A stretch of DNA of 64,000 bases from Candidatus Enterousia sp. (GCA_045614665.1 JAZLDI010000002.1:3366-67365), one strand, 5' to 3'; positions 23,455 to 61,871 are shown, counted from the first letter of the stretch. Notes: generated by a model from the letters alone, not told the origin. Translations and numbers: made by a program.

Positions 23455-23483
23455 TTGCACAGATTCGGTCAAATTGATATAAT
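23455..23483 (+). promoter_or_regulatory. sigma70-type promoter with GANTC after the -35 (TcpQ-like/secretin operon)
   Basis: TTGCAC (23455-23460), 17-nt spacer containing GATTC at 23462-23466, TATAAT (23478-23483). Confidence 0.6.
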
Positions 23484-23515
23484 ATTACTAAATTAAAAGA
23501 AGGAAGGTTTTAATT

Positions 23516-24457
23516 ATGTTCCGCAAAATTTTGTTTGCAGCAATGTGCGCAACGGCGGCTGGATATTGTTTCGCTGCTGAAAGTTTACCCCAGGTTGTTA
23601 CTTCTGAGGTCTTTTATAGCCAGGATAAAATTGTCGATGGCGGTGTAGAAGAGGTTACTGAATCTGTTCAAATTGATGAAACGGAAATGGTAACACAATA
23701 TGCAGACGTGCCGGCGTGGCCATTGGCGGGGTCTGATGCGGATGTAGAGGTTGCGTGTGATAGTCCGAAAAAGAATTCTGATAATATACGCATTGTGTCG
23801 CGTGTTGGGGCTGATTTGGTTGTCGAAAATAATTTTAATTTGGGGACGCGTGGTGAATTTATGGGGTGGTCCGGTGGTGCGAATATGTTGCATGGGATGC
23901 AGGTGCCGGTCGGATTTGATGATGAATGCGCCGATGGTACGGAAATGCCATTGCTGAGTCGTGAAATGTTAGAAGATGATGGTGGTACGGTTTTGTCTGT
24001 GTCGCGCAGTGGACGTAAAAATTGTGGTAAATATGCGGATGGTTATGCTGCTTTTGCAGAACGTGCTGGTATAAAGACAGTGGTAGATGAAAATGGCAAT
24101 GTGGTTTCTGAATCAGAGGCGACAGAAGCTGTTACAGAATCAGAAACGGAAATTTTGGTTGCGGAAACTGCTGATGCAGAGGCACCAAAAGTTATAAAGG
24201 ATCAGGTTCGTTCTTGGGTTGTTGCCAATGGTCAAACCTTGCGTGATGTTTTGCAGTCTTGGTGTGATAAAGAGGGGTGGGATTTAGTTTGGACTACGTC
24301 ACGTGAATATCCAATCCAGGCCAGTGCCGTGTTCAAAGGGCGCTTTGTTGATGTGGCATCTGCACTGGTACGTAATTTTGGTCGTGCAACGCCGGTTCCG
24401 TATGCAAAATTCTATAAGGGGAATCGCGTGTTGGTAATTTCAACGTCGGAACAATAA
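23516..24457 (+). CDS. TcpQ/PilL-like type IVb pilus accessory protein (secretin partner)
   Basis: 313 aa with a signal peptide and an acidic middle region. The C-terminal block WVVANGQTLRDVLQSWCDKEGWDLVWTTSREYPIQASAVFKGRFVDVASALVRNF matches my recollection of the TcpQ-domain pattern (W.v..G.tL...L..W....GW.lvW...dy.i.....f.G.f..A...l). Confidence 0.55.
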   Translation: MFRKILFAAMCATAAGYCFAAESLPQVVTSEVFYSQDKIVDGGVEEVTESVQIDETEMVTQYADVPAWPLAGSDADVEVACDSPKKNSDNIRIVSRVGADLVVENNFNLGTRGEFMGWSGGANMLHGMQVPVGFDDECADGTEMPLLSREMLEDDGGTVLSVSRSGRKNCGKYADGYAAFAERAGIKTVVDENGNVVSESEATEAVTESETEILVAETADAEAPKVIKDQVRSWVVANGQTLRDVLQSWCDKEGWDLVWTTSREYPIQASAVFKGRFVDVASALVRNFGRATPVPYAKFYKGNRVLVISTSEQ

Positions 24458-24491
24458 AAAATAAATGCATCTGCCAAGGGGGAGATTACAT

Positions 24492-26120
24492 ATGAAAAAA
24501 TCATTTAAATTATTGGCTGTCTGTGGATTGATATGCGCGGCATTGGCGGGGTGTGCAACCAAAGAATCGGCCAAGGTGGCGGCCGCCGTTGATACTGATT
24601 TTATTAACGCGTATGATGCGTTCGAAATGGCGAAAAATCCACGCGCCAAGGTGGCAACGGGTGATACTGTCTCTATGTCCGAAGGGGTGTGGCTAGGGGA
24701 TACGTCGACCGTATTAGAACATCGTAACAATTTGCCGGCGAAATTTGAGACGGATACAGGTGTTACTATATTATTAAATGAACCAGTGTCATTACAGGTT
24801 TTGGCAAATGATATTTATTCGGTAACAGGTATCCCGGTGCGTATTGATAGTCAGGTTAATTCTGAAAAATTGCGTAAAACCGTAAATGTTGCGTATACCG
24901 GTAAATTGTCAGGATTGTTGTCCCAGATTTCGACGGATTTAGATATCCTTTGGTACTATGATAATAATGCAATTGTGTTTTATGAAACAGAAACCAAGAC
25001 ATTTACATTATATGCGCTGGGAACGGATGTTTCGTACCAGACCGCTGTTACCACAGACGAAGGAAATCAAGTGTCGTTGGAATCAACCTTGAAAGAATGG
25101 GACGAGGTCGAAAGTACAATCGCATCCATCATTGGCAAGGCGGATAATGCGGACTTTACCGTGTCACGCAGTTTGGGCACGATCACAGTAACGGCACCGC
25201 CATCGATTTTAAACCGTATTGGTGAATATATTGAACGTCAGAACAAACGTTTGTCACAATTGGTTACAATTGATGTGAAAGTTTTACAGGTTACAATTTC
25301 GAATGATACGGCGTTTGGATTAAACTTGGCGGCGGCGATTAATTCAACGTCTGGATTGAATATTGTTGCGAATCCAAAAAATAACTTGGCATCGACCGAG
25401 GCCAGTTCTATGAATATTGCTGTGTTGTCGAATGCGGTGTCGGCATTGACCGGTGCAACTCATATGGAGGGTTCTTCCACGGTCGAGGGGGCATATACAA
25501 ATGATCAGATCATGAATGGTTCTTTGTCGGCAGCCGCAGGCAGTAATGCTTTGATTGAAGCTTTGGCAAAACAGGGCAAGGTTTCATTGGTAACAAACGT
25601 TGGTGTTACGACACGTTCAAACCGCGTTGCCCCGGTCAGTAACACACGTACAACCGGATATATCAAACGTTTTGAATCACGTAATTTCACAACTGTTGAA
25701 TCCAGTACTGTTGACCAGGACGACCTGGAAACTGGTTTCACAATGCAATTGTTGCCAAATGTCTTGGAAAATGGACGTATCTTGCTGTTGTTCCGTATGT
25801 CGGTTCGTGAATTGTTGCGTATGTCAACACAGACAATTGGCGAGGTTACCCTGCAATTGCCAGAGGTTGAAGAACGTAGTTTTATGCAGGAAGTAATCAT
25901 GGAATCGGGTCAGATGTTGGTTGTGTCCGGCTTTGAAAAACAAACAAGCGAAGATACACGTTATGGTTTAGGAGATCCTGACTTTATGGCGCTGTCGGGG
26001 TCGCGTGAAACAGCGTCTACACGTGAAGTGTTGGTTGTTATCCTGACACCACAGGTGCTGGTAAGTCCGCTGGATTCAGAAAGAACAATTCAGCAGCACT
26101 GGGGCGCACCACTAAATTAA
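24492..26120 (+). CDS. lipoprotein secretin of the type IVb pilus class (PilN/BfpB/TcpC-like)
   Basis: The AAGGGGGAG RBS favours ATG 24492. Lipobox LAGC. The C-terminal secretin-like blocks are GFTMQLLPNVLENGRILLLF, MLVVSGFEKQ and REVLVVILTPQVL. Confidence 0.7.
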   Translation: MKKSFKLLAVCGLICAALAGCATKESAKVAAAVDTDFINAYDAFEMAKNPRAKVATGDTVSMSEGVWLGDTSTVLEHRNNLPAKFETDTGVTILLNEPVSLQVLANDIYSVTGIPVRIDSQVNSEKLRKTVNVAYTGKLSGLLSQISTDLDILWYYDNNAIVFYETETKTFTLYALGTDVSYQTAVTTDEGNQVSLESTLKEWDEVESTIASIIGKADNADFTVSRSLGTITVTAPPSILNRIGEYIERQNKRLSQLVTIDVKVLQVTISNDTAFGLNLAAAINSTSGLNIVANPKNNLASTEASSMNIAVLSNAVSALTGATHMEGSSTVEGAYTNDQIMNGSLSAAAGSNALIEALAKQGKVSLVTNVGVTTRSNRVAPVSNTRTTGYIKRFESRNFTTVESSTVDQDDLETGFTMQLLPNVLENGRILLLFRMSVRELLRMSTQTIGEVTLQLPEVEERSFMQEVIMESGQMLVVSGFEKQTSEDTRYGLGDPDFMALSGSRETASTREVLVVILTPQVLVSPLDSERTIQQHWGAPLN

Positions 26121-26125
26121 ATATG

Positions 26126-26216
26126 ATAACTCATATAACAACAAAACCGATGGCTTGCGTAACTTTTGTACTATGCCATCGGTTTAGTTTTTGTTTAAAT
26201 TGTTCTATTTAATTTT
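26126..26216 (+). repeat. copy A of a conserved long-hairpin 3'-end element
   Basis: AAACCGATGGC-(TTGCGTAACTTTTGTACTAT)-GCCATCGGTTT followed by a T-rich tail. About 90 nt align with 45206-45300. Confidence 0.7.
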
Positions 26217-26271
26217 ATTCAGGTCAATTGCATGATAGCGTTTATGTTATAGATATTTGGTGTTATAACGA

Positions 26272-26294
26272 CAAAAAGTGCGCACGCGGCGCAC
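26272..26294 (-). terminator. rho-independent terminator of rpsT
   Basis: GTGCGC/GCGCAC hairpin followed, on the minus strand, by a T5 run. Confidence 0.55.
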
Positions 26295-26318
26295 AAATTT
26301 GTTTGCGTTCAACACGCA

Positions 26319-26579
26319 TTAAGCCATTGCAGCTACTTTCTTCGTCAAACGAGAAATTTTGCGGGCGGCACGTTTCTTTGGCATGATTTTGCCCGCAGAT
26401 TTCATAATCTTGCTTTCTGCATTACGAGCCGCAACGGTTGCAGCCGCTTTGTCGCCAGATTCAACCGCAACCAAAACCTTTTTCGCTGCTGTTTTTACCG
26501 CGCTGCGACGAGATGTGTTAATAGCATTTTTCTTGGCCGAAACCAAAATTCTTTTTTCAGATGACTTGTGATTTGCCAC
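26319..26579 (-). CDS. rpsT: 30S ribosomal protein S20
   Basis: 86 aa. The N-terminus MANHKSSEKRILVSAKKNAINTSRRS is typical of S20. Confidence 0.92.
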   Translation of the reverse strand: MANHKSSEKRILVSAKKNAINTSRRSAVKTAAKKVLVAVESGDKAAATVAARNAESKIMKSAGKIMPKKRAARKISRLTKKVAAMA

Positions 26580-26652
26580 GTTATTTTCCTTTTATTTTTG
26601 TAATGTTTTTGTTATTTTATAGAAAAGAAACATAAAATCAAGGAAAAATAAC

Positions 26653-27243
26653 ATGATATATTTTGTTTTTGCAATAATTATTGCCTATTTGCTGGGGTCT
26701 ATCCCAATGGGACTGTTGTTTACTAAAATGATGGGTAAAGGCGACCTGCGCAAGGTGGGCAGTGGTAATATTGGCGCAACAAACGTTATGCGTGTCGGGG
26801 GACTGCGTATGGCGGGGTTGGTTTGGATTCTGGATATGTTAAAGGCAATTGTTGCGGTATTTATTGGTTATTGGGTTGCTGATTTGGCATTTGGTGCCTG
26901 GTGTGGGTTCGCGGCAATTGTTGGACATTGTTATCCGGTGTGGCTGCATTTCCGTGGGGGCAAGGGGATTTCATCTTTATTTGGTGTGTTGCTGGCGGTC
27001 AGTCCTGTGTCTTTTGCTGTATGTGGAATTGAGTGGTTGTTGGTTGCACTGACGTCTGGGATTTCATCGCTGGGGGCGGTGATTGTGTTTTGTTTGATTC
27101 CTGTATTGGGTTTTGCAATTAGTTGCTCGGTTGGTTGGCCATTCCTGGCGATTGGGTTGCTTTGTATGTGGCGACATCGTGCGAATATTGGACGACTGAT
27201 TGGTGGGACAGAATCAAAAATAGAATGGAAGTGGAAAAAATAA
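26653..27243 (+). CDS. plsY: glycerol-3-phosphate acyltransferase PlsY
   Basis: 196 aa membrane protein with the GSGNIGATNVMR motif. Confidence 0.9.
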   Translation: MIYFVFAIIIAYLLGSIPMGLLFTKMMGKGDLRKVGSGNIGATNVMRVGGLRMAGLVWILDMLKAIVAVFIGYWVADLAFGAWCGFAAIVGHCYPVWLHFRGGKGISSLFGVLLAVSPVSFAVCGIEWLLVALTSGISSLGAVIVFCLIPVLGFAISCSVGWPFLAIGLLCMWRHRANIGRLIGGTESKIEWKWKK

Positions 27244-27248
27244 TTTTA

Positions 27249-27278
27249 ACGGTCACATTGTTGTGGCCGTTTGTTTTT
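27249..27278 (+). terminator. rho-independent terminator of plsY
   Basis: ACGGTCACA-TTGT-TGTGGCCGT hairpin followed by TTGTTTTT. Its arms are identical to the terminator at 8867-8890. Confidence 0.6.
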
Positions 27279-27339
27279 CATCTTTAATTTTAAGATGTTT
27301 TGTGGTATAATTATATTTGATATTACTAGGGAGAAAGGG

Positions 27340-28167
27340 ATGGTGAGAAGTCTGCTCGTTGTGTTTGCGATGTTGTCTGTTATGGGCCCGGCGTGGACCG
27401 CGGTGCCACCCGCAGGGCGTGGACGTGCATCGATGGCAAATCAGATGGGGGCGCGTGCGCTATCTAAGAACTATGTCAATAGTACGGTTACAACAAATAC
27501 TGTGCCCGCTGATGCAGTTGTGGGGGTTGAAGCTCCAACAGTTGTACCAGATGTTGTAAAGGAAAAAAATATGCGTGAACGTGAAAAGGCGGCCTGTATC
27601 CAAAATAATATTGGTGTAGGGGCAACTTTTGTTTGGGCATCAAGGTACAGTAACAGTGCAGATTATAATTCTATGATAGAGGATGTAGAGTTCCCAGAAA
27701 ACAACGTATGTTTTGTAAAGGTTGGATTGAAGTCAAAAGATTCTAGTATCAATGTTTCAGATATACCAACAAAATATTTTGTAATGGGTGAAAATATTAC
27801 CTGTGGTGAGTGGACAAATGAAGAAAAATTGAAAGATCGTATCTTGGAGGCCAAGAAAAAAGGTCGTACATGGGCAACGGTTGGTGGTGCTGTTGGCGGC
27901 GCAGGAATTGGCGTTGGTGCAATGGAATTGTTCGGTAACAAGTTAATTGGTGGCGCGGTAGAGGGACAAGCGGGTATAAAGGATAAGACAGAATTGCTGT
28001 GTTCCCAGTTGAAGGTTTTGCATCAGGAAAAGTCTTCTAAGTATAATGATATTCGTGATTCTTTGACTGAATTAAAGAAGTATTGTGATGATTCGTCCGC
28101 GTGGCCAGATGGGGGTGCGCCAAATGACTGCAAGGAATTTGATTATGATGCCTTGTTGAAATGTTAA
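27340..28167 (+). CDS. hypothetical exported Cys-containing protein with a glycine-zipper hydrophobic segment
   Basis: The AGGGAGAAAGGG RBS favours ATG 27340. Signal peptide LLVVFAMLSVMGPAWTA, a GGAVGGAGIGVGAM segment, and several Cys. No motif recognised. Confidence 0.5.
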   Translation: MVRSLLVVFAMLSVMGPAWTAVPPAGRGRASMANQMGARALSKNYVNSTVTTNTVPADAVVGVEAPTVVPDVVKEKNMREREKAACIQNNIGVGATFVWASRYSNSADYNSMIEDVEFPENNVCFVKVGLKSKDSSINVSDIPTKYFVMGENITCGEWTNEEKLKDRILEAKKKGRTWATVGGAVGGAGIGVGAMELFGNKLIGGAVEGQAGIKDKTELLCSQLKVLHQEKSSKYNDIRDSLTELKKYCDDSSAWPDGGAPNDCKEFDYDALLKC

Positions 28168-28169
28168 AA

Positions 28170-28197
28170 AAATCCCCGTAACGGGGATTTAATTTTT
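28170..28197 (+). terminator. rho-independent terminator
   Basis: AAATCCCCG-TAA-CGGGGATTT hairpin followed by a T-rich run. Confidence 0.65.
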
Positions 28198-28236
28198 GAC
28201 TTTTATCATTATATATAAATTCGCTATGATCATAAT

Positions 28237-29259: not shown

Positions 29260-29267
29260 CGAGATTT

Positions 29268-29289
29268 GTGTATATACAGTGTATATACA
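29268..29289. repeat. tandem 11-mer x2, each containing the palindrome TGTATATACA
   Basis: GTGTATATACA GTGTATATACA read directly, 9 nt after the dprA stop. Confidence 0.8.
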
Positions 29290-29480
29290 AGGTGCAGAAA
29301 TCGGGCAAAAAAACGAATCGTTGTCAAAAAAATAAATGTTAAAAAAACGTTTTAAAGTGGTTGTAAATAGAAATTAATCTTATAAATTATTTGACGTATC
29401 CAAAACGATAGAAATATCACAAAAGGGTGCGGAACATTTCTTAATGATATAAAGAAAAGTTTTGTGCCAACAATATGAAT

Positions 29481-29514
29481 TGTACCTGGTTTTTGGAAGG
29501 AAGAACCTGGTACA
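29481..29514. repeat. 11-bp inverted repeat in the dnaA upstream region
   Basis: TGTACCTGGTT ... AACCTGGTACA (10 of 11 complementary) separated by 12 nt (TTTGGAAGGAAG). Confidence 0.75.
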
Positions 29515-29661
29515 GAAGCGAGAAGAGTGTAGAAGTTAGGGCAAGTATAAACACTAAATTTTTTCATTATCATGGAAAGATTTAGCGTTTATGTGCGGGT
29601 GTCTTTTGCAATCAAAACGCGGGATGCGGGGCAACAAAACGGGAAGGAAAGGAGAAAAAGA

Positions 29662-30948: not shown

Positions 30949-30951
30949 TAA

Positions 30952-30980
30952 AAAACCGCACCCGTTTGGGTGGTTTTTTA
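30952..30980 (+). terminator. rho-independent terminator of dnaA
   Basis: AAAACCGCACCC-GTTT-GGGTGGTTTTTT hairpin with one bulge. Confidence 0.55.
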
Positions 30981-31037
30981 TTTGGTTATATGTTGTTTTT
31001 ATGATAAAATACATTTGATATTATATGGGGGAATGTA

Positions 31038-32702: not shown

Positions 32703-32704
32703 AG

Positions 32705-32729
32705 AAAATCCCGCGATACGCGGGATTTT
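32705..32729. terminator. bidirectional terminator hairpin between convergent genes
   Basis: AAAATCCCGCG-ATA-CGCGGGATTTT, with A and T runs on either side. Confidence 0.65.
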
Positions 32730-38933: not shown

Positions 38934-38967
38934 AATAAAAACTAAATAGCAAATGGAGGCAATACAT

Positions 38968-39432
38968 ATGAAACAAGAATCTGGACGTTCAATGATTGAG
39001 ATGTTGGGTGTGTTGGCAATTATGGGTGTTATTACCGTTGGGGCAATTGAAATGATTCAGCTGGCGATGAATACACAGAAGCGTAATACCGTTAATGAAG
39101 AAGTTTTGCAGATTGTAACCCAAGTGCGCAATATACACGGAGAATATGATGATTTTTCAAATATAAACAATTCTACAATCTTTAACGCAATTGGTATGTC
39201 TGATACAAATCCATATGGAGGTAAGTACGAGGTTGCCGTCGATCCGTCCAATCCACGTCAGTTTGTGGTAAGTATTACGGGGCTTAGTAAAAATGAGTGC
39301 GAAACCTTTATAACCAAGGCTTGGTCCGATTCGATTGGTTATAAAATGTCAGATGGTAAAAGCAGTGGCGCATCAGGTTCTTGCACAAATGGAAATGGCC
39401 GCAATACGGTTCAAATTACGTATGGTGAATAG
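38968..39432 (+). CDS. type IV pilin-like protein (prepilin-type N-terminal cleavage/methylation domain)
   Basis: GGAGG sits 8 nt upstream of ATG 38968. A short leader MKQESG is followed by RSMIEMLGVLAIMGVITVGAI (Gly -1, Glu +5, hydrophobic helix). Two C-terminal Cys could form the D-region disulfide. Confidence 0.6.
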   Translation: MKQESGRSMIEMLGVLAIMGVITVGAIEMIQLAMNTQKRNTVNEEVLQIVTQVRNIHGEYDDFSNINNSTIFNAIGMSDTNPYGGKYEVAVDPSNPRQFVVSITGLSKNECETFITKAWSDSIGYKMSDGKSSGASGSCTNGNGRNTVQITYGE

Positions 39433-42551: not shown

Positions 42552-42581
42552 TTGCACCGAATCGGGGTTTTTTGGTAAACT
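42552..42581 (+). promoter_or_regulatory. sigma70-type promoter with GANTC after the -35 (dnaN)
   Basis: TTGCAC (42552-42557), 18-nt spacer containing GAATC at 42559-42563, TAAACT (42576-42581). The block CCCTTGCACnGAwTCGG is shared with 23452-23469. Confidence 0.5.
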
Positions 42582-42627
42582 GAACTCAAAAGAGTGTGGG
42601 ATACACAGAAAATCTTAGGAGTATGTA

Positions 42628-46748: not shown

Positions 46749-46808
46749 ATATTATTTGAAATAATATGATTTTTGTGATAAAATATGAAAAAGAATAAGG
46801 AGATTTAT

Positions 46809-47180
46809 ATGAAAAAGCAAATGAAAATGATTGGTTTTGCGGCGTTGAGTGCACTGTTCGTGGTTGCAAACGCGTCTGCTGCAACGGGACAGTTGACCAA
46901 GAATGTTGATTTGTGTGCACTGATTAAAGAGTTTCAAGGGATATTTAAATTGTTGCGTACACTGGCGTTTGTTGGTGCGGGTTTCTTGATTGCAGGTTGG
47001 GCGTGGGGATATATCTCTGGCGGTAAAGAAATCAAAGCTATGGATGAAGTAAAGAACAAGGGGGTAAGTATGCTGATTGGCTTTATCTTGTTGTTCGGTA
47101 TTGGTACGTTTTTGCAGGTGTTAAGTAGTACGACTGGTGCGGATATTATGGGATGTAATGAAATATTTACAAATTGGTAA
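46809..47180 (+). CDS. VirB2/TrbC-like pilin-architecture protein (hypothetical)
   Basis: AAGGAG sits 6 nt upstream of ATG 46809. 123 aa: a signal peptide ending ASA, then two hydrophobic helices (LAFVGAGFLIAGWAWGYI and VSMLIGFILLFGIGTFLQVL). The call rests on architecture only. Confidence 0.35.
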   Translation: MKKQMKMIGFAALSALFVVANASAATGQLTKNVDLCALIKEFQGIFKLLRTLAFVGAGFLIAGWAWGYISGGKEIKAMDEVKNKGVSMLIGFILLFGIGTFLQVLSSTTGADIMGCNEIFTNW

Positions 47181-50358: not shown

Positions 50359-50955
50359 TTATAAATCGTATTCAAGAGCAGAATGGATATGAGGATTAGT
50401 GTTCTTTGCTTTTGTTATAACATCTGTGCGTGCGTGATTAAAGGTTTGAATTTTGTCTGGGATTATTTGTATGTTTTTAGGATCAAAGATAACATGTTCA
50501 ACGTGTCCGTCTGTGCTGTTGAAGATTATGCCGTCGTATCCGGCGTTTTGAAAAGCTTTGCTGATTTCGATTGCTAGTATTCTGCGGTCATATTTGTTGC
50601 CCATTATTTTATCGTGGTTTGCCTCTCCTTGGGCTATATATTGTTCGATTTGTTGGGCAATTTTTTGTTGTTCTGGGGTATATTGTTTTGAATCGTCGGG
50701 GAATGATGATATATCCAGTGGGTTTTGCACGTTTACCTTTACTGCTATACGAACCAGGTTTGGGTCATTCCAATAACAGTTCTTGGATTGTGTAAAGAAT
50801 ATTCCGTCAAATTGGTTTGTGTACTCAGTGGTTGCTTTTTTTACCTCTGAAGCAGGCTTGAAACCATCGCGCAGAATTTGTTCTGCGTTTTCTTTGGTTG
50901 TATAGTGGTAAAGTGTATATTGTATTTTGCTGGCAGGAAATATTGCTTTTGCCAT
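50359..50955 (-). CDS. putative ADP-ribosyltransferase-fold protein (polyvalent-protein ART-like), hypothetical
   Basis: 198 aa. LYHYTTKENAEQILRDGF (His), DGIFFTQS, and the C-terminal GYDGIIFNSTDGHVEHVIFDPKNIQII resemble the H-Y/T-E arrangement of ART domains found in phage/plasmid polyvalent proteins. Recognised by eye only. Confidence 0.35.
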   Translation of the reverse strand: MAKAIFPASKIQYTLYHYTTKENAEQILRDGFKPASEVKKATTEYTNQFDGIFFTQSKNCYWNDPNLVRIAVKVNVQNPLDISSFPDDSKQYTPEQQKIAQQIEQYIAQGEANHDKIMGNKYDRRILAIEISKAFQNAGYDGIIFNSTDGHVEHVIFDPKNIQIIPDKIQTFNHARTDVITKAKNTNPHIHSALEYDL

Positions 50956-50967
50956 ATTTTTTCCTTT

Positions 50968-51675: not shown

Positions 51676-51694
51676 TTTCTTCCTTTTTCTTTAT

Positions 51695-53043: not shown

Positions 53044-53046
53044 GTC

Positions 53047-53826: not shown

Positions 53827-53898
53827 ACAAAACAGATTAGTAAATTTTTTTTATACCGTCAAATGAAATAAAAATTGTGGGACGGATATTTTTTGTGT

Positions 53899-53927
53899 TT
53901 GGAAAAGGGGGCGATTTTTGATATACT
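53899..53927 (+). promoter_or_regulatory. sigma70-type promoter of the OMP gene
   Basis: TTGGAA (53899-53904), 17-nt spacer, TATACT (53922-53927). Confidence 0.45.
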
Positions 53928-53952
53928 ACTAGGAAAAAAGGGAGTATGTTTT

Positions 53953-54678: not shown

Positions 54679-54709
54679 GAAAAAATTAGGAATTTGTAAA
54701 AAATGGGTA

Positions 54710-54739
54710 TTGACCCCGATTCGCAAAATATGGTATTAT
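54710..54739 (+). promoter_or_regulatory. sigma70-type promoter with GANTC after the -35 (fibre gene 1)
   Basis: TTGACC (54710-54715), 18-nt spacer containing GATTC at 54718-54722 (CCGATTCGC), TATTAT (54734-54739). Confidence 0.55.
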
Positions 54740-54785
54740 AAATACCGATAAGAGAGTGGTATCGCAAGTATCAGTGAGAGAAGAT

Positions 54786-56501
54786 ATGAAGACCGAAACA
54801 AAAATTTCAAGTATAGCATTAGTATGCGCGTTGTGCGCGGTTGTGGCAACGCCGGCAATGTCTGCGGCGGCGGTGCGTAGCCTGGGTGGTGCGGGCACGT
54901 TCAGCAGTGCGTCCAGTGCGGCGTCGTCCAAGACGTCGGGTGCAACGTCGACACGTGCGGGTTCTTTGCGTGTGTTGCCATCAACGACCAAGGCGACGAC
55001 GTCCACGACCACCACAACGTCAAAGCCGACATCGTCGGGTGCTGCGACAACGACGCGTGTGTCGGCAACGCCGCGTTTATCGATTGGTAAGTATTTGCCA
55101 CATCGTGTTGTTGCGTCAACCGGCGGGTCTTCGGCGGGCGATGCCGGCAATGGTTCAACCGGGGGTGTTGATTTTGTAGATAAAAAAGAATGGGATGAGG
55201 TTTATGCAAAACTGCCAACGCGTGTCGATAACTTAGAAACGGGTGTTGTTGTTCTTGAGGAAAAAGTTACAGATTTGGAAAAGACGATTGGTGATGCGGA
55301 TGTGATTGAGTTGCAAACGATTGTTAATAATCTGCAAACAAACGTTAATACGATTGTGGAACAATTGCCGGCGGATGATGCGCCGGTTGCAAGCCAGGAA
55401 TCTGTAACTCAGATTAATACCACGGTAACGAATATCAATAACACGATCGAGCAGTTACAGGAACAAATTACCAAGATTGAGGGCGGGGATAGCTCTGTTT
55501 CGATTTTGGAACTGGAACAAAGTGTCAAAACTTTGCAGGATGATGTTAGTACGTTAAAATTGGACGTATTGAATGTTCAGGGTGAATTTGCCAAGTATGT
55601 ATTGGATACAGAGCTGGAAGAAGCCTTGAAGACTGTTGATGATGAGGCGTTAATTGCGGCGTTGCGCTCAGAATATGAAGCAAAGGTTGCAGAGCTGGAA
55701 AAAGATATCACAACATTGACATCTAATTTTACAAATTATTACACAAAGTCAGAAGTTGATAAGGCGATTGCAGATGCGGCGTTTGATCCGTCTACGATTG
55801 ATTTGACCGATTATGCCAAAACGGCGGATTTGGAAAAGTTTGCGTTGACGTCGGATTTAGAGGCTGCCCAAATGACTTTGTCGGCATTGATTGATACCAA
55901 GATTGCAACGGGCGATTTTGCGGCGGCAAAAGATTTAGAGGCTTTGGATACCGAATTGTCGGCAATTGTTGCGGCGGGTGTTGTGGATAGCGCGACTTTG
56001 GCATCGGTTAAGTTGGAACTGTCGAACTTGATTAAAGCAAATTCGGATCAGGATGTTATAACGGCGGCTGCTTTGGATCAGTTAGAAAAAGCTTTGGATA
56101 GCGAATATTATACATCGGCCCAGGTTGATGCGCTGTTGGCGCAAAAGGTAGATGTGTCATCGTTGGATGCATTGGAATTGCAGAAGACGGATACTGGTGC
56201 GTATAAACCGTTGGGTGCCCTGGCGTATGAAGATGAAATAGCCGCAGAACAAATTACCAGTATTAACGCGACATCTATTCAGGGTAAGATTACCACTGAA
56301 CAGATTGACAGCTTGGATGCCAGCAAGATTACCGGGACAATTGAATCTGATCAATTGGCGGACGGGGCGGTTACCGCGGACAAGATTACAACCGGTGACG
56401 CAACGTTAGAAGAAGGTAATCTGGCGATGCTGGTATCTGATGGAAAGGGTGGCGTGACCTGGCAATCGGTTGGTGTTGCCACCGGCACAGATGGAAATTA
56501 A
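54786..56501 (+). CDS. fibre-family protein 1: exported Ser/Thr-rich linker plus long coiled-coil/tail-fibre-like repeats (hypothetical)
   Basis: Signal peptide ends AMSA. It is followed by an S/T/A-rich low-complexity block and then Leu/Asp/Thr/Ala heptad-like sequence. C-terminal blocks SKITGTIESDQLADGAVTADKITTGDAT, and the tip NLAMLVSDGKGGVTWQSVGV. Confidence 0.6.
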   Translation: MKTETKISSIALVCALCAVVATPAMSAAAVRSLGGAGTFSSASSAASSKTSGATSTRAGSLRVLPSTTKATTSTTTTTSKPTSSGAATTTRVSATPRLSIGKYLPHRVVASTGGSSAGDAGNGSTGGVDFVDKKEWDEVYAKLPTRVDNLETGVVVLEEKVTDLEKTIGDADVIELQTIVNNLQTNVNTIVEQLPADDAPVASQESVTQINTTVTNINNTIEQLQEQITKIEGGDSSVSILELEQSVKTLQDDVSTLKLDVLNVQGEFAKYVLDTELEEALKTVDDEALIAALRSEYEAKVAELEKDITTLTSNFTNYYTKSEVDKAIADAAFDPSTIDLTDYAKTADLEKFALTSDLEAAQMTLSALIDTKIATGDFAAAKDLEALDTELSAIVAAGVVDSATLASVKLELSNLIKANSDQDVITAAALDQLEKALDSEYYTSAQVDALLAQKVDVSSLDALELQKTDTGAYKPLGALAYEDEIAAEQITSINATSIQGKITTEQIDSLDASKITGTIESDQLADGAVTADKITTGDATLEEGNLAMLVSDGKGGVTWQSVGVATGTDGN

Positions 56502-56574
56502 AAGAGAGAATTGAAAAACAAAAGGCACGGTTGAAAAACCGCATAACAAAAACAAAAAAAGAAAGGAAAGAAAA

Positions 56575-57702
56575 ATGAAAGTAAAAAATATTATGTTCGC
56601 AGGATTTGCCTCTGCAATCTTGTCAGGCGTATGCGGTGCCGCCAGTGCCGCAGATTATAACCTGGTTACCGAGGGTTATGTTACAGAAAAATTAGCCGGC
56701 AAGGCAGATACGGGTGCATCTTATACCAAGGGTGAAACCGATACTTTGTTAGGTGGCAAGGTTTCAGCAGACACATATGCCGCATATATTGAAACACAGG
56801 AAGGTGTTGATAAAGCACAGGATGCTAAGATCCAGGCAAATACAGCTGCTATTGATGGCTTGAGTGGTGTTGATGGTACGGGTTTTGCAACAATGCAACA
56901 GGATATTGCAACTTTAAAAACAGCTGTTAATGACGAAAATGGTGCTGTTGCACAGAAAATCGCAACCGCGATTGCCGAAGAAGAATTGCGCGCAGATGGT
57001 GCATATGCTCCAGTAAGTTTGACACAAACTGTTACTGATTTGTCTGGTCTGGTTGCAACTAAGGCAGATGCAAGTGCATTAGCTGGCAAACAGGATACGA
57101 TCGATGATTTGGCAGATATCCGTTCTGGTGCTGCATTGGGTGAAACAGCGGTTCAGCCAGGGGCTTTGGAAACAACGTTGGGTTCTTATGTAACAACAAC
57201 TGCTTTGGAACAGGCTGGCTATGCAACAACGGAAGAAATGAACACTGCATTGCAGGGTAAACAGGCCACAATTGAAAACCTGGCAACGATTGAAGCAAAT
57301 GCTGCCAAGGGTGCCACAGCGGTTCAGCCAGAAACATTGACACAGACATTGGATTCTTATGCAACAACGGAAGCAATGAATACAGCTTTGCAGGGTAAGC
57401 AGGCCACAATTGAAAACCTGGATACGATTATTGCGGGTGCGGAGGCTGGTGCCACAGCGGTTCAGCCGGGTGCTAATATTTCCGTATTGGTAAATGATTC
57501 TGAGTTCCAGACTGCTGAAAATGTAAACACATTGATTGGCCAGGCACAAATTGCAGAATCCCAGGTTACAGGTCTGACAAATGCATTGGCAGGTAAGTTG
57601 GATGTTATGGAAAATGCGGGTACATATCTGGTAAAACGTGATGGTGAAGGTAATATCAGCTATGTGTCGGTTGAAATTGTTGGTGAAACCGAAGCAGAAT
57701 AA
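56575..57702 (+). CDS. fibre-family protein 2 (hypothetical exported tail-fibre-like protein)
   Basis: Signal peptide ends AASA. The mature N-terminus is ADYNLVTEGYVTEKLAGKAD. Contains three ~46-aa repeats (ALQGKQATIENL...ATAVQP). The tip is GTYLVKRDGEGNISYVSVEIVG. Confidence 0.6.
   Translation: MKVKNIMFAGFASAILSGVCGAASAADYNLVTEGYVTEKLAGKADTGASYTKGETDTLLGGKVSADTYAAYIETQEGVDKAQDAKIQANTAAIDGLSGVDGTGFATMQQDIATLKTAVNDENGAVAQKIATAIAEEELRADGAYAPVSLTQTVTDLSGLVATKADASALAGKQDTIDDLADIRSGAALGETAVQPGALETTLGSYVTTTALEQAGYATTEEMNTALQGKQATIENLATIEANAAKGATAVQPETLTQTLDSYATTEAMNTALQGKQATIENLDTIIAGAEAGATAVQPGANISVLVNDSEFQTAENVNTLIGQAQIAESQVTGLTNALAGKLDVMENAGTYLVKRDGEGNISYVSVEIVGETEAE
57223..57480 (+). repeat. 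tandem in-frame duplication (138-bp period) inside fibre gene 2, with a third diverged copy upstream (about 57070-57222)
   Basis: GCAACAACGGAAGAAATGAACACTGCATTGCAGGGTAAACAGGCCACAATTGAAAACCTGG... recurs at 57223 and 57361 with few differences over the first ~100 bp. Confidence 0.8.
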
Positions 57703-57781
57703 TCTAAAACAAAACGCTTTGAATTGATGCCAAAGCCGTCATAAGCCCAGGCATAAAAAACGAAAGAAAAGGAAAGAAAAA

Positions 57782-58873
57782 ATGACAGTAAAAAATATTA
57801 TGTTCTCGGGTGTTATGGCGGCTATCTTGATGGCGGGTGCCAATGCGCACGCGGCGGTTGAAATCGCCAGTCGTGGTTATGTTGATACCGAAGTTGCAAA
57901 AAAAGCAGATGCGACCGAATTTTCAACGTTAAAGGGCGTTGTTGAAAACGCAGACACCGGTTTGGCAACAAAAGCCAGCAAGACTGAATTGCAGACCGCA
58001 CAGTCAGATTTGCAAGATGCAATTAATTTGAAAGCAAACGCTGCAGATGTTTATACCAAGGATGATGTTTACACAAAGACTGAATCAGATGGTCGCTTTG
58101 ACGCCATTAATGCCGCGCAGAATGCATTGACTGCGGCGCAAAGCTATACAGACGCTCAGCTGAAAACTTTGACAGACAGTTTGGGTGGAACCGGTGAAGA
58201 TGGTGAAAGCACTGGTTTGACTGGTATTGTTGCGGGACATACGGTTCAGATAGGTGCTTTGGAAACCAAGGTTGGTGAAAAAAATGTTGCTACACAGATT
58301 AGCGAGGCTTTGTCGACTTATGCAAAAACCGCAGATGTAGAATCCAAGGATGCTGCAACATTAGAAGCTGCCAAGGGTTATACGGATGAAAAAGTTGGTG
58401 CTTTGACGGGTGAAAATGGTGCAATTACTACATTGGCGGCAAGGGTAACCGCAAATGAAGGTGCCATCGCCACAAATACAGAGGAAATTGCCAAAAAAGC
58501 AGATAAAACAACCGTTGAAGGGATTCAATCAACAATTAATAGCCTGGGCGATACATATGCAACGGATGAAGAAGTTGAGGGTATTCAAACAACTTTACAG
58601 AACAATATCGATACCAAGGTTGCAACAGAAACATATAATGCCAAGGTTGCAGAATTGAGCAGTGCGATCACAACAGAAAAAGAACGTGCCGAGGGTGTAG
58701 AAGGTGGTTTGAATACTCGCTTGACAACGGCTGAAGGAACTATTTCAACCCTGTCAAATGATTTGGCGACCAAGATTACAAAGCCAGCGGCTTGTCAAAC
58801 AGGCAACTGTGTATTGGCGATGATGAATGGTGGTAATCCGGAATGGATTATTCTGACATTGCCAACGGAATAA
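57782..58873 (+). CDS. fibre-family protein 3 (hypothetical exported tail-fibre-like protein)
   Basis: The leader and first codons are near-identical to gene 2 (MTVKNIMFSG versus MKVKNIMFAG). The mature N-terminus is AVEIASRGYVDTEVAKKAD. Contains ADVYTKDDVYTKTESDGRF, and a tip with two Cys (ACQTGNCVLAMMNGGNPEWIILTLPTE). Confidence 0.6.
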   Translation: MTVKNIMFSGVMAAILMAGANAHAAVEIASRGYVDTEVAKKADATEFSTLKGVVENADTGLATKASKTELQTAQSDLQDAINLKANAADVYTKDDVYTKTESDGRFDAINAAQNALTAAQSYTDAQLKTLTDSLGGTGEDGESTGLTGIVAGHTVQIGALETKVGEKNVATQISEALSTYAKTADVESKDAATLEAAKGYTDEKVGALTGENGAITTLAARVTANEGAIATNTEEIAKKADKTTVEGIQSTINSLGDTYATDEEVEGIQTTLQNNIDTKVATETYNAKVAELSSAITTEKERAEGVEGGLNTRLTTAEGTISTLSNDLATKITKPAACQTGNCVLAMMNGGNPEWIILTLPTE

Positions 58874-58885
58874 TAAAAAAATGAT

Positions 58886-58909
58886 GTAAAGGGCAAAAAT
58901 GCCCTTTAC
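58886..58909 (+). terminator. terminator-like hairpin after fibre gene 3
   Basis: GTAAAGGGC-AAAAAT-GCCCTTTAC perfect 9-bp stem. No clear T-run follows. Confidence 0.4.
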
Positions 58910-58934
58910 ACGATTCGTGTAAAAATGATAAAAT
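58906..58934 (+). promoter_or_regulatory. sigma70-type promoter with GANTC after the -35 (fibre gene 4)
   Basis: TTACAC (58906-58911), 17-nt spacer starting with GATTC (58912-58916), TAAAAT (58929-58934) with a TGn extension. Confidence 0.45.
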
Positions 58935-58962
58935 AGATTTATAGGAAGGAAAGGATTACCAA

Positions 58963-60378
58963 ATGAAAAAATTAACAGCTGGGATTTTCACAGTATTAAT
59001 CGGTCTGTGTGCCGCAAATTCTGCGGACGCAAGTGTTGCATCAACTGGTTGGGTCGAAGAACAAGTTAGCGCTTTGGCAACAACGGTTGAAACAAATAAA
59101 ACAACGGCGGCAAATGCAACCAAGGCGGTTTCGGATGCGTTGACAGAATATAAAACGTCTAATGATGCGGTGGTTGCGTTAAAGGCGGCCAATGCTGACT
59201 TACAGGCGTTGCAGGCAAAAGTTGGTACCCTGCCAGAAGGTAGCGCAGACGTTGTTGCATACATCAATAAAAAGACAGAAGGTATTGCAACTGATGCGGC
59301 TTTGGGTGAATTACAGACACAGGTTAGTGGCAATACAACTGCAATTTCAACATTGAATGGTTCCGGTGAAGGCTCGGTTGCGAAATCTATTTCCGATGCT
59401 TTGGCTAGCTATACAAATACAACAGATATGACCGCTGCGATCAAAGTAGTTTCTGATGCGTTGGATACTCATGAAGCGACCGCTGCATCGACATATGCAA
59501 CAATTGATAGTCTGAATACTGCAAATCAGGCGATTGCAGGGTTAGAAACCAGCAAGGAAGCAGTTGTGAATAAGTTGACATCGGATAATGCAACGCAAAT
59601 AGATGATTCTAATAAAGATACGTTCTATCCCACAATTGGTCGTGTAACTGCTGAGATTGATAAGACTGTTACACAAGTGAATAATGATATTACGGCGTTA
59701 ACTGCTGGGTTAGGGACTAAGGCGGACAAAGCAACGGTAGAAGCATTGACAACAACTGTTGGTAATAATGCAGCAACGGCATCGCAGGCCACCGCGGCGG
59801 TTGCAAAAGATTTGTCTGATTATCAGGCGGCTAATAATGCGGCTGTAAAGGCAAATACGGATGCGATTGCGGAAATTAATGATGCCGAAGATGGTATTTT
59901 GGCTCAGGCAAAAGCATATGCCAAGGACCAGGCGGATGCTGCGTCGACCAGTGCGTCTGGCGTTGCGACTGATTTAGCGGGCTTTAAGACAACTGTAAGT
60001 CAGACCTATGCGACACAAGAAGCCTTGGGTGCGACAAATACGAATGTTACGAATTTGACAGGTCGTGTTGGTACGAATGAAACGAATATTGCCGCTAATT
60101 CTACGAATATTACAAAGAATGCAGAAAATATCTTGGCAAATGCAAAAGATATTGAGGCGCATACAACAGCAATTGCGGCGGCCCAGGCCCAGGCGGACAA
60201 AGGTGTTGCGGATGCAGCGGCGGCTCAGTCAACGGCAAATCAGGCAAAGGCAACCGCTGATGCGGCGATTCCAAAACCACAGGGTGAATGTCAGGATGCA
60301 GATAACAAATGTGTGTTGACATATAATAACTCAACTTATACATGGGAAGTTATTGAACGTTCCGCTGAGGGTAAATAA
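58963..60378 (+). CDS. fibre-family protein 4 (hypothetical exported tail-fibre-like protein)
   Basis: Signal peptide ends ADA. The mature N-terminus is SVASTGWVEEQV. Shares the module DSNKDTFYPTIGRVTAEIDKTV. The tip has two Cys (GECQDADNKCVLTYNNSTYTWEVIERS). Confidence 0.6.
   Translation: MKKLTAGIFTVLIGLCAANSADASVASTGWVEEQVSALATTVETNKTTAANATKAVSDALTEYKTSNDAVVALKAANADLQALQAKVGTLPEGSADVVAYINKKTEGIATDAALGELQTQVSGNTTAISTLNGSGEGSVAKSISDALASYTNTTDMTAAIKVVSDALDTHEATAASTYATIDSLNTANQAIAGLETSKEAVVNKLTSDNATQIDDSNKDTFYPTIGRVTAEIDKTVTQVNNDITALTAGLGTKADKATVEALTTTVGNNAATASQATAAVAKDLSDYQAANNAAVKANTDAIAEINDAEDGILAQAKAYAKDQADAASTSASGVATDLAGFKTTVSQTYATQEALGATNTNVTNLTGRVGTNETNIAANSTNITKNAENILANAKDIEAHTTAIAAAQAQADKGVADAAAAQSTANQAKATADAAIPKPQGECQDADNKCVLTYNNSTYTWEVIERSAEGK
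59605..59700 (+). repeat. shared DNA module (copy in fibre gene 4) matching 61075-61170 and 62596-62652
   Basis: GATTCTAATAAAGATACGTTCTATCCCACAATTGGTCGTGTAACTGCTGAGATTGATAAGACTGTTACA... has 2 differences from the gene-5 copy in the first 81 bp, by my reading. Confidence 0.8.
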
Positions 60379-60388
60379 TAAAAATTAA

Positions 60389-60419
60389 TATCGGGACGAT
60401 GTGATTTGTCGTCCCGATA
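60389..60419 (+). terminator. rho-independent terminator after fibre gene 4
   Basis: TATCGGGACGA/TCGTCCCGATA perfect 11-bp stem with a T-rich tail downstream. Confidence 0.6.
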
Positions 60420-60459
60420 AATTCGGTTTTTAATAGTAAAAAGAAAAAGGAAGGAAAAG

Positions 60460-61725
60460 ATGAAAAAAATATTGACAGTGTCGTTGGTTGCAATGATGGC
60501 TGTATCGGCGGCGCGTGCGGATATTGCGTCCACCGCATATGTTCAGGGTGCGGTCGGTGCAGAAACAACGCTGCGTGAAAATGCGGATACCGCGATTAAA
60601 AATTCTATTGGTACGGTAAGTTCGACTAATATGGGGACGACGGCATCAACTGTTGTTACGGCTATTAAAGAACATTCGGATGCGATTAGTGATATTAACG
60701 ACGAATTGGATACAATGGCGACCAGTGAAACTGTTCAGGGTATCGAGACTGCTTTGTCGACGTTGCAGGGTACGGTTTCAACAAATGAAACAGATATTGA
60801 GAAAAAAGTTTCAGATTTGACGACTGTTGTTAACGGTAAACAGGCGACATTGGACACTAATCAGTTGGCGGCTGTAAATTCTGGTGTGACAACTTCTACT
60901 GTGTCTCAAGTTGCTACCAATAAAAGTGATATTGCAGGAATTAAATCATCTGCCTATGCGACATCTGGTATCACATCGTCCAAGGTATCTACATATGATG
61001 GATATGCGGCACAGATTAATGCCAAGGAAGCATCTGCGAATAAGTTGAAAACAGGTGATACGACGACCATAAATGATTCTAATAAAGATACGTTATATCC
61101 CACAATTGGTCGTGTAACTGCTGAGATTGATAAGACTGTTACAGAAGTGAATAATGATGTTTCGGCCTTGTCGGGTGGATTGGCTGCATTGCAGAAGACG
61201 GTTTCTGATAATGAAACTGATATTGAAGCAAAAGTCGCGACTAAGGTAACGGCCAATGCTGCGATTACTGGTGCGACCAAAGCGAAGATTACATATGATT
61301 CTAAGGGTTTGGTAACCGGTGGTGCGGATTTGGCTGCATCTGATATTCCAACATTGGCGACGTCTAAGATTTCTGGATTGGATACCGCTCTGGCTGCTAA
61401 GGAAGTGACATCAAATAAAGTTACGACATTAAGCAGTACTTCGACAAATACACAGTATCCAAGTGCAAAGGTTGTTTATGATGAATTAGCCAAGAAGCAA
61501 GCGACATTATCAACGGCGCAATTAAGTGCGGCGAATTCCGGTATTACATCGGCCAAAGTATCTACGTATGATACAGCCGCAACAAACGCTTCTGCGGCAA
61601 AGGGTGTTACTGATTTGATTAGTGCGGGTACAACCGGTTCGGATGGTACATATGTTTTGACGGCAACGGTTTCTAATAACACAGTGACTGGTTATAAATG
61701 GGAACTGATTGATCGTGCGTATTAA
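60460..61725 (+). CDS. fibre-family protein 5 (hypothetical exported tail-fibre-like protein)
   Basis: Signal peptide ends ARA. The mature N-terminus is DIASTAYVQGAV. Modules ASANKLKTGDTTTINDSNKDTLYPTIGRVTAEID and KVTANAAITGATKAKITYDSKGLVTGGADLAASDIPTLATSKISGL. The tip is GTYVLTATVSNNTVTGYKWELIDRAY. Confidence 0.6.
   Translation: MKKILTVSLVAMMAVSAARADIASTAYVQGAVGAETTLRENADTAIKNSIGTVSSTNMGTTASTVVTAIKEHSDAISDINDELDTMATSETVQGIETALSTLQGTVSTNETDIEKKVSDLTTVVNGKQATLDTNQLAAVNSGVTTSTVSQVATNKSDIAGIKSSAYATSGITSSKVSTYDGYAAQINAKEASANKLKTGDTTTINDSNKDTLYPTIGRVTAEIDKTVTEVNNDVSALSGGLAALQKTVSDNETDIEAKVATKVTANAAITGATKAKITYDSKGLVTGGADLAASDIPTLATSKISGLDTALAAKEVTSNKVTTLSSTSTNTQYPSAKVVYDELAKKQATLSTAQLSAANSGITSAKVSTYDTAATNASAAKGVTDLISAGTTGSDGTYVLTATVSNNTVTGYKWELIDRAY
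61021..61131 (+). repeat. module B in fibre gene 5 (pairs with 62542-62652 in gene 6)
   Basis: 111 bp with about 7 differences by my count. Confidence 0.8.
61234..61500 (+). repeat. module A in fibre gene 5 (pairs with 62194-62460 in gene 6)
   Basis: 267 bp. There is a single difference in the first 205 bp and about ten overall, by my reading. Confidence 0.85.
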
Positions 61726-61736
61726 TCGAAAAAATA

Positions 61737-61774
61737 ATCCCTGGGTGGGTGGTGTAAAGCCACCCATCCGGGAT
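61737..61774 (+). terminator. terminator hairpin after fibre gene 5
   Basis: ATCCCTGGGTGGGTGG...CCACCCATCCGGGAT imperfect long stem with TTGTTTTT downstream. Confidence 0.5.
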
Positions 61775-61790
61775 AGTGTATTGTTTTTGG

Positions 61791-61827
61791 ACTTATTATA
61801 AAAATTGCAGTAATTTTTATAATAAGT
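61791..61827. repeat. perfect 16-bp inverted repeat upstream of the fibre gene 6 promoter
   Basis: ACTTATTATAAAAATT-GCAGT-AATTTTTATAATAAGT. Confidence 0.85.
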
Positions 61828-61841
61828 GTCGAAAAATGTCC

Positions 61842-61871
61842 TTGTGTTGAATCTTGCTTTTTAGATATAAT
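61842..61871 (+). promoter_or_regulatory. sigma70-type promoter with GANTC after the -35 (fibre gene 6)
   Basis: TTGTGT (61842-61847), 18-nt spacer containing GAATC at 61849-61853, TATAAT (61866-61871). Confidence 0.5.

Follow-up and report, generated by a model that had tools for sequence, protein, structure and literature searches.

We examined a stretch of 64,000 nucleotides (nt) assigned to Candidatus Enterousia sp. (GCA_045614665.1, JAZLDI010000002.1:3366-67365), here called the window, and found a GANTC box at a fixed distance upstream of the -10 hexamer in six of its sigma-70-type promoters. Downstream of them lie dnaN, an operon with a tcpQ-like and a secretin gene, an operon that diverges from it, and a cluster of six genes for putative surface fibres, in which each transcription unit begins with such a promoter. 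Comparison with related loci indicates that the feature is real and specific, and that the box is strongly and position-specifically selected in this defined subset of promoters. What was observed directly is that the sites exist, that their geometry is fixed, that they are conserved strongly and specifically, and that they match the consensus of the Caulobacter sigma-70 cofactor GcrA. Judging from the sequence, there is roughly an even chance that the box, usually CGATTCG, is the cis-regulatory site of a CcrM/GcrA module of the type known at ctrA P1, serving all of these units.

An earlier note on this DNA had quoted five -35/GANTC strings. Every one was found where it had been placed, and in all five the G of GANTC lies 16-17 nt ahead of the first base of the -10 hexamer, as had been claimed. 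A sixth composite, absent from that note, reads TCGCAC-GAATC-GG-N10-TATACT and diverges from the tcpQ promoter, which is 60 nt away. The six composites and one possible further member are as follows.

23455-23483, plus strand: P_tcpQ, with TTGCAC (23455-23460), A, GATTC (23462-23466), GG and an extended -10 TGATATAAT (hexamer 23478-23483); by position it drives the tcpQ-like and secretin genes.
23377-23405, minus strand: divergent promoter, the sixth composite, with TCGCAC (23405-23400), GAATC (23399-23395), 12 nt and TATACT (23382-23377); it points into the membrane protein gene at 22798-23340 (minus strand) and then the suf genes.
42552-42581, plus strand: P_dnaN, with TTGCAC, C, GAATC (42559-42563), GG, 2 variable nt, TTTTTTG and an extended -10 TGGTAAACT (hexamer 42576-42581).
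54710-54739, plus strand: P_fib1, with TTGACC, CC, GATTC (54718-54722), GC and an extended -10 TGGTATTAT (hexamer 54734-54739), driving fibre genes 1-3.
58906-58934, plus strand: P_fib4, with TTACAC (or TTTACA from 58905), GATTC (58912-58916), GT and an extended -10 TGATAAAAT (hexamer 58929-58934), driving fibre genes 4-5.
61842-61871, plus strand: P_fib6, with TTGTGT, T, GAATC (61849-61853), TT and the -10 hexamer TATAAT (61866-61871).
127-155, plus strand: possible further member, with CGATTCG (127-133) at the -35 position, 17 nt before TATAAT (150-155).

In all six promoters the GANTC lies in the promoter-proximal region between the -35 and the -10. The promoters are of sigma-70 type, with -35- and -10-like hexamers 17-18 nt apart, properly oriented and 20-45 nt before a start codon, and in all but one of the six the -10 is TG-extended or matches TATAAT at 5-6 of 6 positions. 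The -35 and the -10 are themselves kept across species. P_fib6 is the weakest composite, its flanks (TGAATCT/AGATTCA) not fitting CGATTCG, and the box of P_fib4 sits within a perfect 19-bp palindrome, TTTACACGA-T-TCGTGTAAA. The fibre cluster forms three transcription units whose three promoters all bear the box and have in common an AAAAATG stretch upstream; fibre genes 2, 3 and 5 lack a separate promoter, having in front of them just a terminator or a short A-rich spacer with a ribosome-binding site. The candidate at 127-155 precedes an Fe-S assembly gene (DUF59-type) and sufE, and its G stands 22 nt before the -10, which places it in another offset class than the six composites. Good promoters that lack the box also occur, as the note had observed for tRNA-Lys, tRNA-Phe and efp.

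Conservation was followed through 160 related loci (~2.1 Mb, two neighbourhoods), with L001-L080 making up 1.4 Mb, and through five further regions of 93 kb (L168-L172). In the dnaN promoter the box CTTGCACCGAATCGG was present in 79 of 79 species, with changes limited to rare A>G or A>C substitutions in the -35. Two freely varying nt come next, then an invariant TTTTTTG, then the -10, and the sequence immediately upstream of the promoter block is unalignable and fully diverged among the 79 species. Because the two positions right after the box vary freely, selection at dnaN is specific to the box. Scanning metagenomes with the TcpQ-like protein yielded 80 loci at 55-74% protein identity and one identical locus. 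The tcpQ box CTTGCACAGATTCGGtCAAaTTGtTATAAT was near-invariant over 56 distinct sequences with TcpQ 55-74% identical, and the divergent-promoter box, CgcACGAATCG (opposite-strand form ATCGCACGAATCG...TTATACT), was kept over 58 distinct sequences. Both promoters were retained in the roughly 70 loci with enough upstream sequence; the stretch that separates them differs among loci in both length and sequence. The fibre-1 promoter, TTGACCCCGATTCGC...TGATAAACT, followed the outer-membrane beta-barrel protein (OMP) gene in 9 of the 10 species in which the junction was captured. In two of these loci (L068 and L038) the gap between -35 and box is 1 nt shorter and the box-to--10 distance is still 16 nt; such a fixed distance among orthologues would be expected if the factor were held close to the -10 and to sigma domain 2. 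The sole orthologous promoter found to have lost the box is that of L056 (~20981-21116), where the promoter after the OMP gene reads TTGAAT-N-...CATCAT with no GANTC.

The efp promoter of the same species served as the control. Its -35 (CTTGCGTT) and -10 (TATAAT) were kept and its spacer drifted, so that mean identity over the 9 nt after the -35 was 0.56 in efp versus ~0.99 in dnaN and tcpQ. Invariance across species, set against this drifting spacer, settles the reality of the box. The composite was not found at other genes of the dnaN or tcpQ neighbourhoods, nor in the 93 kb of other Enterousia-like DNA, and it therefore marks a small and specific set of promoters. Those control regions were reached via the DUF3419 gene, which in the window lies downstream of the fibre cluster; orthologues of the fibre-4 and fibre-6 promoters were not reached through this gene, as synteny differs in other species.

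Statistics within the window were in keeping with a positional rather than a general enrichment. The total of 166 GANTC sites compares with 158.9 ± 11 in dinucleotide-preserving shuffles, and the 5.0 kb of intergenic DNA holds 13 sites, close to what a uniform density would give. A good -10 at 16 or 17 nt was found for 6 of these 13 sites versus 0.75 expected (Poisson P = 1.3e-4), and each of the other distances from 5 to 35 nt was represented by at most two intergenic sites. The earlier claim that hits at one offset are unlikely by chance consequently holds for GANTC chosen a priori, which is a reasonable choice in an alphaproteobacterium, and fails blind Bonferroni correction in the window alone: in a scan of 256 gapped pentamers at 30 distance pairs (7,680 tests), GANTC at 16-17 nt ranked sixth, below signals from the TG of the extended -10 and from pentamers of the -35 region (CTTGC, CCTTG). 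The heptamer CGANTCG was enriched between genes: intergenic DNA makes up 7.9% of the sequence and holds 7 of the 30 sites (P = 0.007). The intergenic set excludes two genes, the DUF5856 gene at 9722-10126 (minus strand) and an rpsT candidate at 26319-26579 (minus strand), an 86-amino-acid, lysine- and alanine-rich open reading frame (ORF) read by eye as ribosomal protein S20; the GANTC sites at 9765, 9939, 10011 and 26458 fall inside these genes and were rejected as intergenic. Two intergenic sites (45264 and 46724) were recognized as terminator stems and discarded as promoter sites, as was the recurrent AATCGGGAATC...GATTCCCGATT. Rarity of GAGTC and GACTC as a hint of a restriction system was also dropped, composition being sufficient to account for the counts (5 and 2 observed versus 6.4 and 3.9 expected, respectively).

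The identity of the box was then compared with known systems. The host is indeed an alphaproteobacterium, as the note had assumed: matches of the DnaN protein and their taxonomy place it in Candidatus Enterousia, GTDB order Rs-D84. CGATTCG appears on one strand in four of the six promoters (dnaN, divergent, fibre 1 and fibre 4) and at a further site upstream of dnaA, and the box occurs in both orientations relative to transcription. Most boxes fit the extended motif YGAKTCG/K; the two that deviate are AGATTCG in tcpQ (6 of 7 positions of YGAKTCG) and AGATTCA in fibre 6 (no fit). In Caulobacter the GcrA consensus is TGATTCG or YGAKTCG, and GcrA is a monomeric sigma-70 cofactor that binds sigma domain 2 and activates promoters with methylated GANTC (PMC4647560, PMC9976885). 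Its boxes either cluster in the spacer, around -20 ± 1 and -30 ± 2, or lie downstream between +5 and +30 (PMC9976885), and the GANTC of ctrA P1 is reported at -28/-29 from the mapped start (PMC4287350). With the -10 hexamer put at -12 to -7, the G of the Enterousia box is predicted at -28/-29 and its centre at -26/-27, an arrangement the same as that of ctrA P1. The CcrM/GcrA pair has been described as conserved across nearly all Alphaproteobacteria (bioRxiv 10.64898/2026.05.29.728657).

The likeness to ctrA P1 of Caulobacter crescentus lies in a GANTC right after the -35 of a sigma-70-type promoter, at a position (-28/-29) reported there and predicted here, in two alphaproteobacterial hosts. 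In contrast, methylation, GcrA dependence and the start have been demonstrated in Caulobacter and would be predictions for Enterousia; the target there is a response regulator, whereas here the targets are dnaN, a pilus secretin and surface fibres. The wider Caulobacter GcrA regulon (PcsM at -20, PmipZ at +4/+12; cryo-electron microscopy structures 7YE1 and 7YE2) also resembles the Enterousia set in its motif (YGAKTCG versus CGATTCG), its spacer location, its usually single box per promoter and its restriction to a subset of sigma-70 promoters (PMC4647560, PMC9976885). It differs in that its main class is centred at -20, with the G ~10 nt before the -10 instead of 16-17 nt, and in that boxes at +5 to +30 were not seen in Enterousia, where the central base is also fixed in each orthologous promoter.

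The CcrM/GcrA reading, which we regard as plausible and unproven, has its strongest support in a box that is predicted to start at the ctrA P1 position, mostly has the preferred heptamer and keeps its distance to the -10, an argument that goes further than the earlier note. Under it, a trans-acting factor would read the box at its fixed distance from the -10 of sigma-70-type promoters. A CcrM-type enzyme would methylate the GANTC adenines, and a GcrA-like sigma-70 cofactor on RNA polymerase would recognize methylated YGAKTCG in the -35-proximal half of the spacer, thereby boosting initiation. Promoter output would then be set by the level of the reader and possibly by methylation state after passage of the replication fork. 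The regulon seen so far would comprise dnaN, the tcpQ-secretin operon, the divergent membrane protein gene followed by suf genes, and the three units of the fibre cluster. Where transcription starts, that the box is methylated, which factor reads it and that it may be tied to replication are what we infer from these comparisons, and the last of these is offered as a hypothesis and not as a result. Promoters of Gammaproteobacteria that are sensitive to Dam (GATC) offer an analogy, and only that: there too a short palindromic methylation site at the core promoter could couple transcription to fork passage, although the motif, enzyme family and readers are different and no sigma cofactor is involved.

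Several observations weigh against this reading. The predicted centre at -26/-27 lies at the edge of the -30 ± 2 class, between the two main classes (PMC9976885). The central base is fixed among orthologues, with GAATC at dnaN in 79 of 79 species and GATTC at tcpQ, and it never flips within an orthologous promoter, though nearby neutral positions are saturated with changes. Since recognition of GANTC only would let the centre vary, the constancy of both centre and flanks implies that the reader sees more than GANTC. The fibre-6 heptamer, AGATTCA, is the lowest-ranked GcrA heptamer in Caulobacter, and dnaN is not among the Caulobacter GcrA targets (PMC4647560). The direct regulon in Caulobacter excludes dnaA and the replisome, save dnaE, so that GcrA control of dnaN would be a rewiring without precedent there (PMC4647560). 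The GcrA/CcrM module is missing from Rickettsiales and some obligate symbionts, and the present lineage, with a genome below 1 Mb and probable dependence on partners (PMC12306168), is of the kind known to lose it (PMC3885167, PMC3973325).

The searches for the two proteins add to this side. Homologues of ccrM and gcrA, which the note had proposed to look for, were sought in ~6% of a ~0.9 Mb genome and none was found, which is not evidence of absence. With Caulobacter CcrM and the DNA-binding domain of GcrA as tblastn queries, neither was found in the window, the 160 related loci or L168-L170 (59 of the 93 kb); a hidden Markov model of the CcrM family had no match among all stop-to-stop ORFs of the window and L001-L164; and a regular-expression search for gcrA in the window and L001-L080 found nothing. 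L171 and L172 were checked via Pfam gene lists only, in which neither N6_N4_Mtase nor a GcrA family was named. The queries were verified against PDB entries 6PBD (CcrM), 7YE1 and 5YIU (GcrA), with N6_N4_Mtase plus a C-terminal RAMA domain defining CcrM and PF07750 defining GcrA. A database search with Caulobacter CcrM gave, among the matches listed, only Caulobacterales and none assignable to Enterousia. In these database searches, which were not aimed at the Enterousia lineage, divergent full-length CcrM-like proteins were found among 50%-identity representatives, and those traced belong to other organisms. As candidates for an Enterousia CcrM we rejected P0142 (on a contig of 29.5% guanine plus cytosine, GC), P0152 (which adjoins a chemotaxis receptor gene), P0168 (the methylase of a HinfI restriction system) and the proteins reached from P0142 in a further round (on contigs of 28% and 51% GC). 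In contigs from two assemblies of very different GC content a ccrM-like gene stands directly downstream of rnhB, namely L165 (ERZ25071362 contig_1, 991 kb, 28% GC) and L166/L167 (JAGRKE010000002.1, 51% GC), and in the 51% GC record, labelled Alphaproteobacteria, it is also near mutY, dciA and efp. The Enterousia efp neighbourhood (dnaN-ppa-efp) contains no ccrM.

Genome statistics of the CcrM type were likewise not found in the 1.4 Mb of Enterousia-like loci. Orders that bear CcrM show GANTC depleted at least 2-fold and an intergenic excess of more than 1.5-fold (PMC3973325). Here the observed/expected ratio was 0.64 overall, 0.63 in coding and 0.73 in intergenic DNA, for an intergenic/coding ratio of 1.15, and GANTC ranked in the middle of the 16 pentamers of the same structure (L001-L080). 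The same tabulation showed CTNAG strongly depleted (observed/expected 0.12, the lowest of the 16), and a similar CTNAG bias has been reported in other Alphaproteobacteria (PMC3973325). L001, L003, L004, L006 and others also contain, at ~17.6-20.1 kb, a conserved ~55-nt hairpin, AAATCGGGAATC...GATTCCCGATTT, flanked by T-runs on both strands, which is probably a bidirectional terminator; it has one GANTC per arm, and these are structural and not associated with a promoter. The earlier attribution to CcrM and GcrA is partly supported, by flanks (CGATTCG at most sites) that fit the GcrA consensus and by a predicted position that matches ctrA P1.

We consider it possible, if somewhat unlikely, that an ordinary sequence-specific DNA-binding protein, an activator or a repressor unrelated to GcrA and independent of methylation, has the box as its operator. 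It would read (C)CGA(A/T)TCG(G) across the upstream half of the spacer, the likeness to GANTC being incidental or a relic of an ancestral CcrM/GcrA system. Conservation that reaches the flanks (CCGAATCGG in dnaN, CGATTCG elsewhere), a central base that CcrM ignores and that is fixed nonetheless, and a place between -35 and -10, the classic position of a repressor, would all suit such a protein. So would the failure to find ccrM or gcrA in the sequence searched (~6% of the genome), the lack of a CcrM-type genome-wide GANTC bias and the frequent absence of the module from alphaproteobacteria with reduced genomes (PMC3885167). However, a dimeric helix-turn-helix protein would be expected to have an operator longer than this quasi-palindrome of 7-9 bp, inspection revealed no consistent extended palindrome common to the six sites (only fibre 4 has one), and Pfam scans placed no candidate regulator gene near any site. 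The best GcrA heptamer at the ctrA P1 position would, moreover, be a striking coincidence in an alphaproteobacterium (PMC4647560, PMC4287350). Sites for sigma-32, CtrA, DnaA, LexA and FNR were considered as the identity of the box, and none of their known consensus sequences fits.

An account that retains the history of the module is that Enterousia lost CcrM and GcrA, like Rickettsiales, yet keeps the highly conserved CGATTCG box at its set distance from the -10 in a small regulon that joins the sliding clamp to the pilus secretin and the surface fibres. The box would now be read by an undescribed factor, either a new sigma-70 cofactor or a methylation-independent descendant of the ancestral system, in a host-associated bacterium that has very few regulators; this we judge unlikely.

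Improbable, in our estimate, is an intrinsic feature of the core promoter with no dedicated trans factor, read by RNA polymerase and sigma or through DNA shape and tuning promoter strength. The alphaproteobacterial -35 consensus does extend beyond the hexamer (TTGACGS in Caulobacter), and the efp control also keeps 2 nt after its -35 hexamer (CTTGCGTT) without a GANTC. In the boxed promoters, however, 9-10 nt are conserved after the -35, far beyond efp, and the distance of the box is fixed to the -10 and not to the -35; good promoters (tRNA-Lys, tRNA-Phe, efp) do without the box, and the same heptamer is conserved before dnaA outside any -35/-10 frame. Chance, or common descent of duplicated promoters given that three sites lie in one paralogous cluster, is very improbable and can be set aside: the window alone gives P ~1e-4 for GANTC chosen a priori but only rank 6 of 7,680 blind, and the AAAAATG stretch of the three fibre promoters could reflect duplication, but the fibre proteins are only 19-24% identical, so that neutral likeness of their promoters would have decayed, the boxes are invariant over dozens of species with adjacent bases saturated, and the related loci are not near-identical strains (TcpQ identity 55-74%).

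The site before dnaA belongs to a conserved block of ~140 nt.

29267-29400, no strand assigned: dnaA-upstream block, with two GTATATAC repeats, AAAAAAAC-GAATC-GTTGTCA (GANTC at 29315-29319) and a DnaA-box-like GTATCCAAA.

The earlier note had placed a minus-strand copy of the promoter composite here, at 29314-29327. The string is present, and it is not a promoter composite, as no -10 lies at a usable distance on either strand. The GAATC and its flanks (AAAAAC-GAATC-GTTGTCA) were invariant in 18 sequences, namely the window and 17 loci (L021 and 16 of L085-L164); in the 16 metagenomic dnaA loci the N-terminal DnaA stretch used for locating them is only 38-58% identical. In the same block, at 29267-29290, two palindromic GTATATAC(A) copies (GTATATACAGTGTATATACA), 11 nt apart, are kept before dnaA in all species examined, and the DnaA-box-like GTATCCAAA follows ~110 nt downstream of them. 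The GTATATAC repeats may resemble an NrdR-type operator.

The dnaN leader also proved to be conserved. At 42590-42612 of the window, a AAAGAGTGTAGGA...ACAC element (a GTGT...ACAC mini-hairpin or palindrome) is kept in the 79 species, and it matched no Rfam family. Strings like AAGAGAGTGG occur at the equivalent place in the fibre-1 (~54748) and fibre-6 (~61885) leaders, and none was found in the tcpQ or fibre-4 leaders.

Genes of the window that bear on the boxed promoters are listed below.

22798-23340, minus strand: membrane protein gene, hypothetical, the target of the divergent promoter.
3' of the membrane protein gene, minus strand: sufB, sufC (Pfam SUFBD, ABC_tran), then an ORF without annotation (19919-20767).
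From 23516, plus strand: TcpQ-like gene (Pfam TcpQ), divergent from the membrane protein gene.
From 24465, plus strand: secretin gene (Pfam Secretin), next after the tcpQ-like gene.
28237, strand not stated in the gene list: dprA (Pfam).
29572, strand not stated in the gene list: dnaA (Pfam).
42628, plus strand (that of its promoter): dnaN (Pfam DNA_pol3_beta).
53875, preceding the fibre cluster: outer-membrane beta-barrel (OMP) gene (Pfam).
54786-63015, plus strand (that of the promoters): six tandem fibre genes with secreted products.

The name fibre for the products of the six-gene cluster is plausible. Their pairwise identity is 19-24%, their matches are weak and coiled-coil-like, with no curated family and no solved structure matched, and they have in common an N-terminal motif A-x-IAS-x-GYV after the signal peptide. 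Elsewhere in the window, the predicted N-terminus of the gene at 38953-39432 (plus strand) resembles a type IV pilin (MIEMLGVLAIMGVITVGAI), the gene at 46785-47180 (plus strand) has a weak TrbC/VirB2 pilin match, and the gene at 50359-50955 (minus strand) matches an ART-PolyVal ADP-ribosyltransferase domain below threshold (28.1 bits versus a cut-off of 31.2). Together with TcpQ and the secretin, these pilin-like, TrbC/VirB2-like and ART-PolyVal-like predictions point to a pilus or contact apparatus. GC skew was above zero in all 4-kb bins (0.04-0.29), and the cumulative skew climbs without a turn from 1 to 64000; the window therefore probably holds neither a replication origin nor a terminus, despite having dnaA, dnaN and gyrB inside.

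The DnaN of the window is 100% identical to that of metagenome-assembled genomes labelled Candidatus Enterousia, and representatives of 78 more species from animal guts have a DnaN that is 92-99% identical to it. Enterousia genomes measure ~0.75-1.0 Mb and miss most biosynthetic pathways, and a partner-dependent lifestyle has been suggested (PMC12306168). The Rs-D84/Enterousia lineage is widespread in animal guts, uncultured and below 1 Mb in genome size, and almost no regulation has been described in it. One box that links dnaN, the pilus secretin operon and every promoter of the fibre cluster provides a testable handle on how replication and attachment or partner contact may be coordinated in a minimal cell. 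If CcrM and GcrA are present, the box would belong to a compact and rewired alphaproteobacterial module for epigenetic control of the cell cycle, with a replisome gene and surface organelles as its targets; if they are absent, it would mark a reader not yet described. In either case, a search for CGATTCG with its G at 16-17 nt upstream of the -10 could already list the regulon in hundreds of metagenome-assembled genomes.

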